From Escherichia coli 042 (GTDB taxonomy: Bacteria > Pseudomonadota > Gammaproteobacteria > Enterobacterales > Enterobacteriaceae): a stretch of 64,000 bases of DNA. A program made the translations under genes and the position numbers. Shown one piece after another: positions 7,230-60,053 of the stretch. The number at the start of each line of letters is the position of its first letter. Position 1 is the stretch's first letter. Under the pieces are notes generated by a model. The model was given only the letters and a program-made list of their open reading frames with translations. It ran no database searches and was not told where the DNA came from. The stretch lies in assembly GCF_000027125.1 (NCBI RefSeq), contig NC_017626.1; one strand, 5' to 3'.

Positions 7230-7268
7230 CACGCTACCGCCCCTGGCTTAACAGCTACCAGTGCACTA
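7230..7268 (-). promoter_or_regulatory. JUMPstart element with ops (GGCGGTAGCGTG), RfaH-dependent antitermination site in the O-antigen operon leader
   Basis: Minus-strand sequence TAGTGCACTGGTAGCTGTTAAGCCAGGGGCGGTAGCGTG matches the 39-bp JUMPstart consensus and ends with the ops element. Confidence 0.85.
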
Positions 7269-8591: not shown

Positions 8592-9986
8592 CTACTCTCT
8601 CCGTTCTGGCAATCTAAAGTTAATCTTTTCCACATTAACAATATGGTGATTAACCCTGTCGATATCGACGGAGCTTTGCCCTCTTTCATTCACCGCATGA
8701 ACATTTGCAAGAGACAGCAGTGTTTCTTTTTTCGCCATAAAGACGCCGCGAACGTCTTTGCGCATGTCGAAGTTCATGCTCAATGCGGGTCCAACAGAGG
8801 ATTCCTGCATCACTTTGATATTTCGTATAAAAAGATGTTGCGGTTTGTTGTGTAACTCCAACGAGGCACGCTTCATCTCAATGTTAGTCAGTGCAACAAA
8901 GGAGACAGCATTCCCGGCAGAGATTTGGATACCGCGCAATTTGTAAGCAAGGTGGGTGTTATCCAGCTGAATATTATTCACTCGGAAATTTTGCGGTATC
9001 GAGAGATATTTGCCTTTAATTACCCCATAACCGATTAACATCCCGGCGCTATTAATCATTTCAATATTATCAATCACGAAATTGTCACAACCGTAAATAG
9101 CGACCGTGGCGTTATCAATACCTGCTTTCTTACTGAAATCCGGCGTGATATTGCGGGCTTTGATATTACGAATAACAAAATGTTTACCATTTTCAACATG
9201 GATCAGTTGTCGACAATCCGATCCCGTGATATTCGCCACGACAAAGTTTTTCACTGCCTGGTCTTCCGGGTAGTTATTATCATAAGTACTCCCCGCAAGG
9301 CCTATGCCGATTCCCCAGTTGATTTTGCCGTTGGTACAGTTGATGCGCTCGATGATGTGGTCGGAGATCAAAATATCACTGTCGTTAATCGCCACGTTCC
9401 ATTCAATGGCGTCCCCCTGTAAGTCGCTGAACTTACAATTGGTGATGTTGGCACCGATAATCTGGTTATGAAATCCCTGACGTAAGATGGCGTAATTAGC
9501 GTGGCTGACAGTGAGGTTATCGATGGTCAGGTTGCGCATGACCCGTTTGTTTTTGCCGCCGATATAAATCTGCGTTACTGGGCCAAAGCCGCTCATCGCC
9601 AGCCCTTTGATGGTGCAGTCAGAGCCGCGCACATCCAGGGTGATGTTATGCATACTGCCGCCCTCCTCCCCTGTCACCTGGCTGCCGTCTTGTAAGACAA
9701 AACGCCCTCTGCCGTTGCCGCGCAGGCTTCCAAGGATGTGTAACGTTTTGCCAGGAGGAATGAAGATGCCGGTGTTGATATTTTCACAAACCAATCCGGC
9801 AGGCACGACGACCGTTTGCCCTTCGCTGAAGGCTTGTTTAAATGAAGCAATCCAGTCGTGTGGGTTGTAGTCGTTAATGTTAACGCTTTGCCGGGCAGGA
9901 AGTGCTCGGGCGAAAGGCGTATGAAGGAAGGCAAGCGCCGAGCTTACCGTCAGGAAAGTGCGTCGGGAGAGTTTTTTAAATGGCAT
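8592..9986 (-). CDS. wcaM: colanic acid biosynthesis protein WcaM
   Basis: 464 aa, same length as K-12 WcaM; signal-peptide-like N-terminus; last gene of the wca operon, adjacent to galF. Confidence 0.88.
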
Positions 9987-9996
9987 ACGTTCTCCT

Positions 9997-11217
9997 CTAT
10001 AAAGCTTGCAGCAAGCTGGCGAGTTCTCGATTAATCACCTGCTGGTTAAAATCATGTTCGACTTTTTCGCGCGCACGTTTGATAACCGGAGCCAGTTCGT
10101 CGGTGTCCAGTTGGCTAAACGCCGCCAGTCGTTGCGCCAGTGCACGGGCATCGTTCTCAGGCACCAGCCAGCCGGATTTGTCAGCCTCCACCAGTTCCGG
10201 TATTCCGCTATGCAGAGTAGAAACCACCGGAATGCCGACCGCCATCGCTTCCATTAGCGCCACCGGAATGCCTTCCATATCACCATCCGCACCTGTAACC
10301 GATGGCAACAGGAAGACATCCGCGTCGTCGAGCATCGCTTTCACTTCGTGGCTCGGTTTAAAGCCCGGCATCTCCACCACATCTTCCAGTTGATATTGTT
10401 CGATGAGGGTGCGCAGGCGTCGTTCCCACGGGCCAATGCCGAGGATGCGATAGCGAAATGCCACGCCCTGCTCTTTCAACTGACGGCAGGATTCGATCGC
10501 CACATGCAGGCCTTTTTTCTCGGTTAAGCGTGCGACGGAGATGATTTCCAGCGGTATTGCGGGCGCTTTCACCGGACGCGGGCTAAAACGCGTCATGTCC
10601 ACGCCCATGCGCGATACGGCAATTTTTTCCCTCGGGCAGCCCATTTTTTGCAGCCTTCCGGCCCAGAGATCGCTGATCGGTAGCATCAAATCGCCACGGC
10701 GAAACAGTTGCTGATATTCGGGGGTGTAGTGGTTGAGCACTTCCCGACTGGAGATATCAATGCCGTGGAAGATAGTAGCGATTTTGCCGCGAATGACACC
10801 CAGTTCCCGTAGTTTTGCTGCGGTTACCCCCGCCGGGCCAAAATGAGCGATGAACACATCGGCATAAAATGGTGTTGCGACCTGGCCGCAAATGGCAGAC
10901 AAAATCAGGTTCCGCGACTCGGCACCATAGCGTTTGAGGTTGAGCGCCTGCCAGGTATTTTTGCGATGAATGCCGCGTAAGGTCTGGCTGGCGCGGTGGC
11001 GCAGCTTCGCCACTTTGCCCGTAGGTTCGTCCTGTAACCAGCGGGTTCTGGCGGCAAGGTTGTATTTCGTCCATGCCGCGTGGGTGTTTTGTGTGTCGCC
11101 TTTTTGCAGCGCGACAATCTCCACCTCAAATCCCATATCAATAAACGCAGTGATTTGGTTGAGAACGAAGGTTTCCGACGACAGCGGAAATTTCAGTAAA
11201 AAGAAGCCGACCTTCAT
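9997..11217 (-). CDS. wcaL: colanic acid glycosyltransferase WcaL
   Basis: 406 aa GT4-type protein in conserved wca order. Confidence 0.88.
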
Positions 11218-12494
11218 TTCACCTCCCCGATGCGTTCAAGCACAGATTGCACCATCTGCATTCCCGTCTGACGTTCGCGACTGACGGCTTCGTTAAGTCG
11301 CGCGTTCAGCGCCGGAAGTTGGCCTAAGGTATCCGCAACCATCGCTTGCAGGCTGCCGTCCAGTAAATGACGGATATCAATTGCCATCTCTGGCAGCCCC
11401 AGCTGCTGCATAATCCCGGCGGATTTATGTTCATAGTTGATGGCAATCGCCGGAGTGGCAAAGTTCATCGAGATAATGGCTGAGTGCAGGCGCGTACCGA
11501 CGGTGAGTTCACTGGCACCGAGAATTTTGCCCATTTCCAGATCATTGAGTTCATCCATCACTACGTGGTAACGGGCAGGATCGCAGATGTGCTGGCGCAG
11601 ATTGAGCGCCACCATGCGGTCGTCTTTGTTATAGCTGTCGATGCCCGTACAGGTGGAGAGCGCAATGACCTGATAGCCTTCGTCGAGAATGCGATTGACC
11701 ACCCCGGCAAAGGCTTTTTCATACGCTTGTTGGGTGGTGCCGAGACGTTTGTCGAACGGTGCCAGTTCGCGCAGGGTAATTGCCACCGTTTTCTGTTGTG
11801 CGGCAACGTCCAGCCAGTGTTGAACGGCATAGCTGGCGGTGAAGTCTTCTGTGTGGTGATCGACCAGCCACGCGGTATCGACGCCATGTTCAACTTTTGC
11901 AGTGGAGATATTGCTGCGTTTCATCAAATCAAGGCTGACCGATTCGCGCAGGATCAGCGCATCGCAGTGACCAAAAACGTAGTTCGCCAGTTGGTTAAAT
12001 TGCTCATCCTGGAAGGGGCCGACGCTGTGACCAATCATAAACAGCGGCTTTTTCGCCATAAATGTGCAAAGCGCATGTTCAAACTGTGGCACGCCGTAGA
12101 GATCGACAAAAAACGATCCGCCGACCTGAATAATGGCGTCGTAACCTGACAGCAGGCGCACGAAGTCAGTGAATCCCTGGGCGATGGCGATATTACGCAA
12201 CTTGCCAGTGTCGGTGACGCGTGAGAGCAATACCTGATGCTGGTAGCGGCGACGGAGGACTTTTTTAACGCGCCCGACAACGCCCGCCACGCTGTTGTGT
12301 TGTTTCATTTGCAGGAACAGTGGATCGCCCATTACCGGGCGGTTGAGCAGCCAGGAAGAACTGACCGGATAGCGGCTCATCACGTCCACTTCGGCATGTG
12401 GATTGAGGATGTTGATGGCATCAAGTAAGCCGCGCAGGATGGCGCTGTCGCCACGATTGCCGCAAGTGTGGTTGCCCAGAATAAGTAATTTCAT
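11214..12494 (-). CDS. wcaK: colanic acid pyruvyl transferase WcaK
   Basis: 426 aa; 4-nt overlap with wcaL (translational coupling); conserved position. Confidence 0.88.
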   Translation of the reverse strand: MKLLILGNHTCGNRGDSAILRGLLDAINILNPHAEVDVMSRYPVSSSWLLNRPVMGDPLFLQMKQHNSVAGVVGRVKKVLRRRYQHQVLLSRVTDTGKLRNIAIAQGFTDFVRLLSGYDAIIQVGGSFFVDLYGVPQFEHALCTFMAKKPLFMIGHSVGPFQDEQFNQLANYVFGHCDALILRESVSLDLMKRSNISTAKVEHGVDTAWLVDHHTEDFTASYAVQHWLDVAAQQKTVAITLRELAPFDKRLGTTQQAYEKAFAGVVNRILDEGYQVIALSTCTGIDSYNKDDRMVALNLRQHICDPARYHVVMDELNDLEMGKILGASELTVGTRLHSAIISMNFATPAIAINYEHKSAGIMQQLGLPEMAIDIRHLLDGSLQAMVADTLGQLPALNARLNEAVSRERQTGMQMVQSVLERIGEVK

Positions 12495-12555
12495 TTTTTC
12501 CTCATAAATTTGATGCCAGGTGAAGCTGCGTTTGTTTTGTTCGTTGCCGCTTTTT

Positions 12556-12745
12556 GCCTGATGCGACGCTGGCGCGTCTTATCAGGCCTACAAGACCCGA
12601 GCACAGAACCGTAGGCCGGATAAGGCGTTCACGCCGCATCCGGCATTCAGTGCCTGATGCGACGCTGACGCGTCTTATCAGGCCTACAGGTCCCGAGCAC
12701 AGAACCGTAGGACGGATAAGGCGTTTTACGCCGCATCCGGCAACC
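12556..12745. repeat. REP/BIME cluster (several palindromic units) between wzxC and wcaK
   Basis: Repeated GCCTGATGCGACGCTGGCGCGTCTTATCAGGCCTAC and CCGGATAAGGCGT...CGCCGCATCCGGCA units in alternating orientation. Confidence 0.85.
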
Positions 12746-12769
12746 ATTGCCGGAACCGAAAACAACAAC

Positions 12770-14248
12770 TCACCCCGCCCGTAAAAGCATTTTCATTTTT
12801 TCGCTGCGACAAAACTGACGCTTCACTTCCACCACCAGCGGATGGCGCGACAGCACAATCATCACTACAAACGCCAGCACGCCTGCGGCTATTTGCACCG
12901 CCAGCAGCATCCCCAGCGCCAGTTGCCCTTTCAGCACAATGCCCAGCGCATAACTGACCACCAGCGTCGGCAGCGAGAGATAAAACGGCAGCCATAAACT
13001 CAGGATGTACTGGCGATAACTGGAACCGAGCACCGGTTTAATCATCACGAAGTAACTCAGAATGGTGTTGATAATCTGCACCAGCAGGAAGCCGAGCGTG
13101 ACGCCGATTGCGCCCGCCATTTGCCCACCTATAACAATCGCCGGAATAAACAGAAAGGTTTTGAATACGTTGAATTTAAAGCTGATATCGACCCGCGCTT
13201 TCGCCATCAGCAGCGAACCAATCGGGTTCCCCACTGAGCGCAGCAGCCCCACCACACACAGTAAATGCAGCACCGGAATAATGCTGTTCCACTTCTCACC
13301 AAAGACCAGCGGTACAAAGTTATTCGACACCACCATCAGCCCCAGCAGCGCCGGAAAGTTGATAATCCCCACCACCGACAGCAGCTTGTAGAAGTTGACG
13401 CGCAGCTTTTCGGTGTCGTCCTGAATTTTGGCAAATGCCGGAAACAACACGCGGGTGATGATCGGGTTCAGCTTCATCGGCGGCACAACGGCCACGTTGT
13501 ACGCCAGGTTGTATCCCCCTGCCACGCCCGCGCCAAGAATACGCGCCAGCACCAGCGTTGAAAGGTTGGTGTTGAGATAGTTGATGATGCTGTCCGCCGT
13601 CAGCCAGGCACCAAAACGTAAGTTCGGTGCTACCGACGCCAGCGAGAAGTGCAGACCGGGACGATAAATTTTGCGGCCAAAGTAGCCAAACAGCAGCGTT
13701 CTTACCGTACTATTGACCAGATAACCGAGGATCGCGGTCATCGCCAGCGGCCAGAAATGGGCGCTAACCACAGTAAAAGTGAAGCCCGCCAGCACCGCGC
13801 TGGTTTCGATCATGCCGATTTTGTTGAACTCCAGCTCCTTCTGCATCAACGCGCGGAACTGTTGCCCGTGGGGGATCACCACAAACGCCAGCGACAATGT
13901 TTTAATCAACGGTGCCAGGTCCGGGTTATTCAGCACGTCGCCGATGAGATCACTCAACAAAAACACCGCCACGCACACCACGATCCCCAGCCCGACGTTC
14001 AGCCAGTACAGCGTGGTGAGTTCAAGGTGGCTGATTTCTTTTCGCTGAATAATCGAGTTAGCGATACCGAAGTCAGAAAGCGTATCTGCCAGCGCGATAA
14101 TCACCAGCGACACAGTCAGCAGGCCGAACTGGTGGTTGTCGATAATCCGCGCCAGCACGGTCATCTGTACCAGCCCGAGGCCGATGATGATCACCGTGGC
14201 AATCGCCGACCACTTCGCGCCGCTGATGGTTTTTTCACGTAAGCTCAT
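12770..14248 (-). CDS. wzxC: colanic acid repeat-unit flippase WzxC
   Basis: 492 aa polytopic membrane protein; conserved position. Confidence 0.9.
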   Translation of the reverse strand: MSLREKTISGAKWSAIATVIIIGLGLVQMTVLARIIDNHQFGLLTVSLVIIALADTLSDFGIANSIIQRKEISHLELTTLYWLNVGLGIVVCVAVFLLSDLIGDVLNNPDLAPLIKTLSLAFVVIPHGQQFRALMQKELEFNKIGMIETSAVLAGFTFTVVSAHFWPLAMTAILGYLVNSTVRTLLFGYFGRKIYRPGLHFSLASVAPNLRFGAWLTADSIINYLNTNLSTLVLARILGAGVAGGYNLAYNVAVVPPMKLNPIITRVLFPAFAKIQDDTEKLRVNFYKLLSVVGIINFPALLGLMVVSNNFVPLVFGEKWNSIIPVLHLLCVVGLLRSVGNPIGSLLMAKARVDISFKFNVFKTFLFIPAIVIGGQMAGAIGVTLGFLLVQIINTILSYFVMIKPVLGSSYRQYILSLWLPFYLSLPTLVVSYALGIVLKGQLALGMLLAVQIAAGVLAFVVMIVLSRHPLVVEVKRQFCRSEKMKMLLRAG

Positions 14249-14249
14249 A

Positions 14250-15644
14250 TCAATATGCCGCTTTGTTAACGAAGCCTTTGAATACCGTCAGGAAAACGAT
14301 TTTGATATCGAACCAGACGCTCCATTCGCGGATGTACTCAAGGTCGAACTCGACGCGTTTTTCCATTTTCTCCAGCGTGTCGGTTTCGCCGCGCCAGCCA
14401 TTAATCTGCGCCCAGCCGGTAATGCCCGGTTTCACTTTATGGCGCAGCATGTAGCCTTCAATGAGCTGGCGATACTGTTCGTTATGCGCCACCGCGTGCG
14501 GACGTGGACCCACAATCGACATCCCCCCGGTCAGCACATTGATAAACTGCGGCAGTTCATCCAGCGAGGTGCGGCGCAGAAAGTTCCCCACTTTGGTGAC
14601 GCGCGGATCGTTCTGCGTCGCCTGGGTCACCACTTTGTCGTTCTCCATCACTTTCATGGAACGGAACTTCCACACTTTGATCGGCTTGCCATCCATGCCG
14701 TAGCGAGTCTGGCGGAAAATAACCGGCCCAGGTGAGCTCAGTTTCACCGCCAGCGCAATGCAGCACAGCACCGGGGAGATCAGCAGCAGGATAAGCGTCG
14801 CCAGCACAATGTCTTCCGCACGTTTGAGCAGGCGGTTAACCCCGGAAAGCGGCGTGTCGTAAAGCGGCACCACCGGAACGCCGTTCATCTCTTCAAGACG
14901 TGAATGAAGAATGTTGAAGGTAAAAACATCGGGGATCAGCAGCACCGAACAGGTGGTGTCCGCCAGTTGATGGACCAGTTTTTTCACTCGCGCGCCGTCG
15001 CACATCTGCATCGCGATATAGACGTTATGAATCTTGCCCGCTTTTGCATCCTCTACCAGCTGTTGCAGATTGCCCGCCCAGTCGTTAGAAACGCCGCCCG
15101 GTTTTGGGTCGTGGTATACGCCCACCACTTCAAACCCTAACCACGGCTGATTACGGAAGCTCTCCATCAGCATTTGTCCGGCGGCTAAATCCCCCGCCAC
15201 CGCGACCATCCGCTTGTTATAGCCATGATTACGCAGCCAGCCCGCCCCAATGCGAATACATGAACGGCAAACCACCAGTCCGATGCTGGTCAGCCCATAC
15301 AACGCCAGCCAGATTTTCAGTTGCGTGTCGAAATCATTGTTGAACGCCACCAGTCCGGCGCTGAAAATCACGCTTAAGGTCCAGTTTTGTAGCAACAGAG
15401 CAAATTCTGTCGCTGCCCGAACACCGCGCCATGAGCGATAAAAATCGGTGATGCCGCCCAGCATCTGGAACACCACCAGCGTAATCAGCGCCACCAACAG
15501 GTGCATGTAGAGGAATGACAGTCCGCTGACTTCGCAAACCAGCCATAGTCCGGCAAACATGATGGTGATATCTGAAAAGCGTTGCACCATAGAGATTAAC
15601 GATGCATTGGTTTTCGCTCGCTCGCGCTTTTTTAGATTTGTCAT
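14250..15644 (-). CDS. wcaJ: undecaprenyl-phosphate glucose-1-phosphate transferase WcaJ
   Basis: 464 aa; C-terminal sugar-transferase domain (…DELPQF…GPRP…) with N-terminal membrane segments. Confidence 0.9.
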   Translation of the reverse strand: MTNLKKRERAKTNASLISMVQRFSDITIMFAGLWLVCEVSGLSFLYMHLLVALITLVVFQMLGGITDFYRSWRGVRAATEFALLLQNWTLSVIFSAGLVAFNNDFDTQLKIWLALYGLTSIGLVVCRSCIRIGAGWLRNHGYNKRMVAVAGDLAAGQMLMESFRNQPWLGFEVVGVYHDPKPGGVSNDWAGNLQQLVEDAKAGKIHNVYIAMQMCDGARVKKLVHQLADTTCSVLLIPDVFTFNILHSRLEEMNGVPVVPLYDTPLSGVNRLLKRAEDIVLATLILLLISPVLCCIALAVKLSSPGPVIFRQTRYGMDGKPIKVWKFRSMKVMENDKVVTQATQNDPRVTKVGNFLRRTSLDELPQFINVLTGGMSIVGPRPHAVAHNEQYRQLIEGYMLRHKVKPGITGWAQINGWRGETDTLEKMEKRVEFDLEYIREWSVWFDIKIVFLTVFKGFVNKAAY

Positions 15645-27485: not shown

Positions 27486-27549
27486 AGGTTGTTCTCCCGG
27501 AGTGTCGAGATGTTCTGCCGGTTTATAAGCTTGTTTACGGGTTCTGTTG

Positions 27550-27612
27550 CCGGATGCGGCGTGAACGGAGGTCGGATAAGATGCGTCAGCATCGCATCCG
27601 ACAGCGGATCTC
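27550..27612. repeat. REP-like palindromic unit between wcaA and wzc
   Basis: CCGGATGCGGCG...GCATCGCATCCGAC inverted-repeat structure typical of REP. Confidence 0.5.
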
Positions 27613-31545: not shown

Positions 31546-31584
31546 CACGCTACCGCCCCTGGCTTTTTAGCTACCAATACACTG
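31546..31584 (-). promoter_or_regulatory. JUMPstart element with ops (GGCGGTAGCGTG) in the wza leader
   Basis: Minus-strand sequence CAGTGTATTGGTAGCTAAAAAGCCAGGGGCGGTAGCGTG; shares the ...AGCCAGGGGCGGTAGCGTG core with the element at 7230-7268. Confidence 0.85.
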
Positions 31585-41343: not shown

Positions 41344-41368
41344 GCCTGATGCGACGTATCAGGCCTAC
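41344..41368. repeat. single REP unit at the alkA 3' end
   Basis: GCCTGATGCGACGTATCAGGCCTAC palindromic unit. Confidence 0.6.
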
Positions 41369-60009: not shown

Positions 60010-60020
60010 CATTTTTACCT

Positions 60021-60053
60021 GCCGGAGAAGGCATTCACGCCGCATCCGGCAAC
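60021..60053. repeat. REP-like palindrome downstream of baeR (possible terminator)
   Basis: GCCGGA...ACGCCGCATCCGGCA. Confidence 0.4.

Follow-up and report, generated by a model that had tools for sequence, protein, structure and literature searches.

REPs are imperfect palindromes of 30–40 nt whose stem has a conserved GTAG at its foot, and a BIME-2 consists of z2 and y REPs joined by a short linker and present in tandem copies, the number of which varies between strains (PMC3333891). The substrate of TnpA-REP (RayT) has been described as consisting of one y REP and one z2 inverted REP (iREP); binding requires the GTAG and a stem mismatch, and cleavage occurs at a CT in the iREP or in the linker (Ton-Hoang et al. 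2012, PMC3333891).

The classical intercistronic stabilizers are the REPs of malE-malF and hisJ-hisQ (Newbury 1987 and Stern 1988, as cited in PMC3158064 and PMC6061677). In yjdMN, REP325 stabilizes the upstream gene and attenuates the downstream gene about 10-fold, partly via Rho, and tandem gene pairs separated by REPs are upstream-biased genome-wide; fragments of REP325 carrying 2–4 hairpins have no detectable Rho-dependence (bioRxiv 10.64898/2026.03.23.713779). The naRNA4 model was built from the REP325 BIME-2, and naRNA4 is described as a discrete HU-binding small RNA whose proposed role in the nucleoid is contested (bioRxiv 10.64898/2026.03.23.713779). Ribosome stalling by a REP needs a distance of 15 nt or less from the stop codon (Liang, Rudd and Deutscher 2015, as cited in PMC12306157).

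REPs in the spacer between wcaK and wzxC, in four or two copies depending on the strain, were reported by Iguchi et al. 2011 (PMC3158064). The presence and the copy-number variation of REPs at this junction are thus already published, and the element is catalogued.

The REP array between wzxC and wcaK

The window analyzed here is a 64,000-nt stretch of Escherichia coli 042 (NC_017626.1), the minus strand of which carries the colanic acid (wca) cluster. The genes and signals surrounding the array are as follows.

8592-9986, minus strand: wcaM (NCBIfam equivalog match)
9997-11217, minus strand: wcaL (NCBIfam equivalog match)
11214-12494, minus strand: wcaK, pyruvyl transferase, the downstream gene (TIGR04006, E = 4e-279, NCBIfam equivalog)
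12503-12500, minus strand: GAGG Shine-Dalgarno sequence of wcaK, 5 nt before the AUG
12772-12770, minus strand: UGA stop codon of wzxC, 28 nt before the first REP
12770-14248, minus strand: wzxC, colanic acid flippase, the upstream gene (NCBIfam NF007773, E = 1e-250, equivalog)
14250-15644, minus strand: wcaJ (NCBIfam equivalog match)
31546-31557, minus strand: ops element GGCGGTAGCGTG in the JUMPstart of the wca operon leader (exact match)

wzxC and wcaK are both minus-strand genes, and the spacer that separates them occupies 12495-12769 (275 nt). All four REP palindromes, z2, y, z2 and y' in alternating orientation, lie inside it at 12556-12741, and the wcaK AUG is 61 nt downstream of the end of the last REP.

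12556-12591, minus strand: z2 REP copy a, wcaK-proximal, GTAGGCCTGATAAGACGCGCCAGCGTCGCATCAGGC on the mRNA (minus) strand; exact match to the z2 pattern, RNA hairpin of -20.5 kcal/mol
12592-12610, no strand: 19-nt tail-to-tail linker AAGACCCGAGCACAGAACC, the gap between annotated REPs
12611-12644, plus strand: y REP copy 1, GTAGGCCGGATAAGGCGTTCACGCCGCATCCGGC on the plus strand; exact match to the y pattern, RNA hairpin of -21.3 kcal/mol
12645-12651, no strand: 7-nt head-to-head linker ATTCAGT, the S-type of BIME-2
12652-12687, minus strand: z2 REP copy b; match to the z2 pattern, differing from copy a at a single position, the N of the pattern
12688-12706, no strand: second 19-nt tail-to-tail linker
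12707-12741, plus strand: y' REP, wzxC-proximal, 35 nt, degenerate; 3 differences from the y model, RNA hairpin of -15.6 kcal/mol

The REP units are 34–36 nt long, and each has GTAGG/CCTAC and a mismatched stem. The y' unit is degenerate through a 1-nt insertion in the loop (TTTTAC) and a GGAC that replaces GGCC. Written as a pattern the array reads z2> 19 nt y< 7 nt z2> 19 nt y<. Its two z2 + y units make up a direct repeat of 96 nt with 95% identity, and all alleles examined share the identical 19-nt tail-to-tail linker. In 100 dinucleotide-preserving shuffles of the window, neither the full-length z2 pattern nor the full-length y pattern had a match. The initial annotation had placed multiple REPs of alternating orientation between the two genes at 12556-12745. 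Four such units are present and no shuffle reproduces them, and since the start is exact and the end is only 4 nt past the last REP base, that observation is confirmed.

Units were typed with consensus sequences, and the assignment was then checked independently against the 5' BIME of the rayT REPtron of MG1655. The BIME upstream of rayT, GTAGGACGGATAAGGCG...CATCCGGC followed by GCCTGATGCGACGCTGGCGCGTCTTATCATGCCTAC, contains a y REP and a z2 iREP, with which our z2 and y types agree. Every feature that defines a BIME-2 was found at the junction: REP units, the z2 and y types, alternation with a short linker, tandem copies of variable number and an extragenic location. The element is a canonical BIME-2, and the earlier label ‘BIME-type’ is correct and can be sharpened accordingly. 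BIME-1, which combines z1 and y with a long L linker containing an IHF site, was ruled out because the z1 model was the best fit to none of the four units, the linkers are 7 and 19 nt, and the IHF consensus WATCAANNNNTTR had no match in the element on either strand with one mismatch allowed. Judged by its sequence, the element is a candidate TnpA-REP (RayT) substrate, as the prerequisites, GTAG and stem mismatches, are present.

The element corresponds to REP144 of EcoCyc, MG1655 2118467-2118652, which maps to window 12557-12742; the MG1655 spacer is also 275 nt and has the same architecture of four REPs. The Rfam naRNA4 model matched 12614-12684 on the plus strand with 79.7 bits, above its gathering score of 59.5, whereas the mRNA (minus) strand scored 55.4 bits, below it. 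The matched pair is y copy 1 plus z2 copy b (77 nt), and the model in effect recognizes any y/z2 pair.

Elsewhere in the window, a first REP scan was too permissive and was useful only as a pointer to three other REP remnants. These are degenerate y-like palindromes at 27547-27600 in the wzc-wcaA spacer, a short z1-like REP, GCCTGATGCGACGTATCAGGCCTAC, standing alone at 41344-41368, and a degenerate y REP at 60019-60050.

Unit number and the empty allele in E. coli

Alleles of E. coli carry 0–6 units (0–12 REPs) between fixed outer borders, which in representative alleles lie 61 nt from the wcaK AUG and 28 nt from the wzxC stop codon. We used a query of the coding flanks only and sampled at even steps down the ranking, which gave 56 joined hits. 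A 47-nt junction probe for the empty allele was too strict (at least 106 genomes matched at full length, and its left arm varies), and the flank-only query was used instead. Representative alleles are listed with their spacers and with their share of the sampled hits.

0 units: SX12, spacer 71 nt; 5/56 hits
1 unit: O157:H7, spacer 179 nt; 6/56 hits
Single-REP remnant: spacer 145 nt; 2/56 hits
2 units: the window and K-12, spacer 275 nt; 18/56 hits
3 units: F9792, spacer 371 nt; 6/56 hits
4 units: ST131, spacer 468 nt; 5/56 hits
5 units: H10407, spacer 565 nt; 11/56 hits
6 units: NRG857C, spacer 660 nt, 12 REPs
Unrelated spacer with a boxC-like repeat: 161 nt; 3/56 hits

In every allele from one to six units the outermost y' is the most degenerate copy, which fits amplification from within the array.

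As a separate observation, 785 of 5,426 complete E. coli genomes had no match to the flanks of the wcaK/wzxC junction, a hint that about 14% of genomes lack the distal wca region or carry something else in its place.

The allele without units shows what the array is embedded in. Its 71-nt spacer (SX12, locus L005 846-916) contains a perfect 13-bp stem, GUUGUUGUUUUCG/CGAAAACAACAAC, directly after the stop codon, and folds with -29.8 kcal/mol (z = -4.5). Both arms of this hairpin can be found in the window.

12757-12769, minus strand: 5' arm of the flanking hairpin, GUUGUUGUUUUCG, starting directly after the wzxC stop codon
12533-12546, minus strand: 3' arm of the flanking hairpin, CGAACAAAACAAAC, slightly diverged in the window

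The BIME occupies the loop of this flanking hairpin, and in the minimum free energy structure of the window the arms are still paired across about 200 nt. A CGGCAA direct repeat brackets the BIME; it could be a target duplication, or it could have provided microhomology for precise deletion.

Most probably, the element as a whole is an expandable BIME-2 repeat that occupies a permissive gap of the distal wca operon and is not a built-in regulator of it. The array would have begun as a single ancestral insertion into the loop of the small hairpin just after the wzxC stop codon. Later expansion and contraction would have proceeded by whole units, either through TnpA-REP/RayT or by slippage or unequal recombination between the 95%-identical units.

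We also considered whether recombination at the REP cluster itself promotes the exchange of the O-antigen/colanic acid region among strains. When Iguchi et al. compared two O157 strains, similarity changed sharply at the wcaK-wzxC spacer, and they proposed that REPs were involved; however, they found only a few such cases (PMC3158064). In eight strains the coding flanks on both sides of the element were 96–97% identical to the window, and therefore there is no recombination break at the element in these strains. A role of this kind is highly unlikely to account for the cluster. Matches that covered only one side of the element were an artefact of joining repeated pieces and did not reflect divergence.

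Transcription through the array

A very stable RNA is predicted for the junction. The mRNA strand of 12485-12780 folded with -143 kcal/mol (z = -8.6), and none of 200 shuffles was as stable. Single REP hairpins ranged from -15.6 to -21.3 kcal/mol, and y copy 1 and z2 copy b can alternatively form one long hairpin of -50.1 kcal/mol. Scanning both strands of 12300-13000 revealed neither an intrinsic terminator (GC-rich hairpin plus U tract) nor a sigma-70-like promoter, and no promoter-like site was found on either strand of 11200-14300. A wider scan gave five terminator-like sites, all outside the spacer and no more than shuffles yield.

The initial annotation had suggested that the REPs act as an internal mRNA stability or polarity element and separate the expression of wcaKLM from that of the upstream genes. 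As a model, this is a functional boundary within the operon, at which the hairpins stabilize the wza-wzxC mRNA, attenuate transcription or do both, leaving wcaKLM lower and separately set. In its favor, the 12-unit z2/y array REP325 behaves in just this way in yjdMN; the array RNA at wzxC-wcaK is predicted to be very stable; and some natural alleles reach 12 REPs, the size of REP325. Against the model stand the published per-gene data for MG1655, in which the transcript level does not drop across the element. Upon induction by colicin M/Rcs, the log2 fold changes on arrays were 4.82 for wcaJ, 4.45 for wzxC, 4.45 for wcaK, 3.63 for wcaL and 2.71 for wcaM (PMC3599342). Induction thus falls gradually along the operon and is equal on both sides of the element, although a constant fractional attenuation would cancel out of such fold changes.

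Basal expression points the same way. Normalized counts from uninduced MG1655 grown in LB were 37.5 for wcaJ, 36.2 for wzxC, 90.9 for wcaK, 161.5 for wcaL and 144.3 for wcaM; these RNA-seq counts are very low, since the main operon promoter is off, and the strandedness of the counting step is unstated in the source. Per kb, wcaK was about 3-fold higher than wzxC, and wcaK, wcaL and wcaM together were about 3–5 fold higher than wzxC and the upstream wca genes. This pattern is the opposite of the upstream bias typical of REP-separated pairs, and it suggests that the distal wca genes are partly expressed independently of the main promoter.

The operon itself is expected to be a poor setting for attenuation by Rho. 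The RfaH ChIP signal covers wza-wcaM in CFT073 delta-hns delta-stpA (PMC9765446), and the leader ops element, which shares a transcript with the BIME, precedes wza by about 180 nt and the BIME by 19 kb. Rho-dependent attenuation should therefore be blunted. The boundary model is further opposed by the lack of detectable Rho-dependence in REP325 fragments with 2–4 hairpins, by the missing U-tract terminator at the array, and by the natural occurrence of alleles without REPs and of a non-REP allele that includes BL21. We consider such a boundary unlikely. Of the earlier proposal, the stability element agrees with the mainstream view of the REP class and with the predicted fold, but the locus expression data give no sign of polarity. 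The proposed separation of wcaKLM from the upstream genes finds no support in these indirect and not decisive data, in which wzxC equals wcaK on induction and basal counts are higher downstream; a modest stabilizing or insulating effect may nevertheless exist.

The basal step could also be read in the opposite direction, with a REP hairpin at a processed 5' end protecting wcaKLM, or with the array insulating a weak internal start, so that wcaKLM expression is raised. The increase from wzxC (36.2) to wcaK (90.9) occurs at the junction, and a higher basal level would agree with the weaker fold induction seen for wcaL and wcaM. However, the absence of any promoter-like site in 11200-14300 on either strand, the very low counts and the unstated strandedness of counting all weigh against it, and because the rise continues from wcaK to wcaL the step is not localized to the BIME. 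We find this reading quite improbable.

We favor the expandable repeat in a permissive gap, for which the course of events on the RNA can be proposed as follows. The array would be transcribed within the long, RfaH-modified mRNA that runs from wza to wcaM, and its hairpins are predicted to be very stable. As with other REPs, the hairpins would be expected to obstruct 3'-to-5' exonucleases, and decay intermediates of the upstream segment would then end at a REP. Premature termination would be small, because RfaH antagonizes Rho and short arrays are weak terminators, and wcaK would be translated from its own ribosome-binding site 61 nt downstream. The effect of the 4-REP allele on wcaKLM expression is probably small, and the side effect of the array on RNA stability is at most modest. 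As DNA, REP144 is probably a gyrase-binding site as well, like other BIME-2. With 0–12 REPs among E. coli strains and no array in most other genera, the element does not count as a conserved part of the operon's design, and a required regulatory role is unlikely.

Two further features were noted near the operon. Abutting REP144 and antisense to the 3' end of wzxC, at window 12741-12839 on the plus strand (MG1655 2118651-2118749), the 2026 REP preprint places a Rho-binding site detected in vitro (‘NusG plus’; supplementary table). A second exact ops element, GGCGGTAGCGTG, is found at 7230-7241 (minus strand), downstream of wcaM and on the same strand as the leader ops; the chance expectation for an exact ops is 0.1 per window, and two were found. 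Judged by its position, the second is probably the leader of the O-antigen cluster.

The junction in other genera and in relation to known systems

About 5% of E. coli have a different wzxC-wcaK spacer of 161 nt, present at full length in 275 genomes, BL21 included. In E. coli RCAD0514 (locus L006 846-1006) it contains a GC-rich palindromic repeat, which we take to be boxC-like, and a GAGGTCA-type ribosome-binding site. The repeat has the form CCCTCTCCC...GGGAGAGGG...GGGGTGAGGG, and the coding flanks of this allele are 97–99% identical to those of normal E. coli alleles.

We also compared the junction across other genera, using 80 loci (L011-L090) from species-representative genomes with WcaK. 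The wzxC-wcaK spacer had a median of 29 nt in 77 species representatives, and in most other genera it measures 14–32 nt and contains only a GAGGTCA-type ribosome-binding site. By an alignment-based measure 27 of the 77 loci have a spacer of at least 50 nt, and direct measurement gives 28. By motif classification, REP-type palindromes occur in 8 of these 28 long spacers (Escherichia and several Citrobacter) and boxC-like repeats in 13 (Pluralibacter, Pseudenterobacter, Lelliottia, Kosakonia and others), while 7 have neither motif. The ancestral wzxC-wcaK spacer of Enterobacteriaceae is 14–32 nt, and REP pairs, boxC-like repeats or other palindromes have filled it independently.

Neighboring junctions are much less often enlarged. 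Spacers of at least 50 nt were found in 5/75 loci at wcaJ-wzxC, in 0/80 at wcaK-wcaL, where the genes overlap by 4 nt, and in 4/77 at wcaL-wcaM. Small palindromic repeats have thus landed at the wzxC-wcaK junction repeatedly. Permissiveness is the simplest reading of this recurrent filling, as the junction is the only uncoupled gap in the distal wca operon. At wcaJ-wzxC, where the genes normally lie close together, the junction is widened to 108–159 nt in Salmonella enterica subsp. arizonae (L027), Phytobacter diazotrophicus (L067) and Buttiauxella agrestis (L089).

Because a stable hairpin is present even in the REP-free allele and the gap has been filled by palindromes independently, one may also speculate that the junction is selected to carry strong RNA structure, the number of units (0–6) being a heritable dial for the ratio of the late enzymes to the flippase and the upstream enzymes. 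We give this idea little chance of being correct. If true, unit number would tune the WcaK pyruvyl transferase, WcaL and WcaM against the flippase, and hence the modification of colanic acid between lineages.

The element could instead act at the DNA level, as a strong gyrase site that works independently of transcription and relieves positive supercoiling, or as a topological boundary, in this operon of more than 20 kb at times of heavy transcription. BIME-2 are enriched for in vivo gyrase cleavage sites, mainly at y REPs, and their cleavage signal rises when transcription is blocked (PMC6379681); the wzxC-wcaK element is a textbook BIME-2. However, only a subset of BIME-2 is cleaved, and neither wcaK nor wzxC is named in the available parts of the supplements of that study (PMC6379681). 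It is common for strains to lack units or to carry a boxC-type spacer, and any gyrase role is therefore dispensable. It is not likely that such a role explains the element.

This catalogued REP cluster of a well-described family has little significance for new biology. The useful outcome is a negative one: one should not take it for granted that wzxC-wcaK divides the colanic acid operon. We believe that the natural series of 0–12 REPs, together with the non-REP allele of BL21, is a convenient test bed for how REP array length affects termination and mRNA decay in an antiterminated operon, a question that is still debated.

Several described systems resemble the junction in part. The boxC-like repeats occupy the same wzxC-wcaK junction as the BIME, in E. 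coli including BL21 and in many other genera, but they are an unrelated sequence family without the GTAG or the z2/y motifs of BIME-2. The stalling REPs (Liang 2015) likewise lie downstream of a stop codon; at REP144, 28 nt separate the wzxC UGA from the first REP stem, and the earliest alternative pairing is at +17, compared with the limit of 15 nt, which rules out the translational stalling class.

The closest functional parallels are intercistronic. As in malE-malF and hisJ-hisQ, REP hairpins stand between two cistrons at wzxC-wcaK and would be expected to block 3' exonucleases, but two public datasets argue against an upstream excess at wzxC-wcaK. REP325/naRNA4 (yjdM-yjdN, Rfam RF02564) has the same z2/y unit as REP144 and likewise lies within an operon between co-oriented genes. 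It has 12 REPs, a number that some strains carry at wzxC-wcaK as well, compared with 4 in the window allele. The best naRNA4 match at REP144 is on the strand antisense to the operon, and REP144 also differs in that its host operon is RfaH-antiterminated and shows no upstream-biased expression in the available data. With the BIME-2 family (Bachellier/Gilson nomenclature; PMC3333891), REP144 shares all of its structure, and nothing structural sets it apart.
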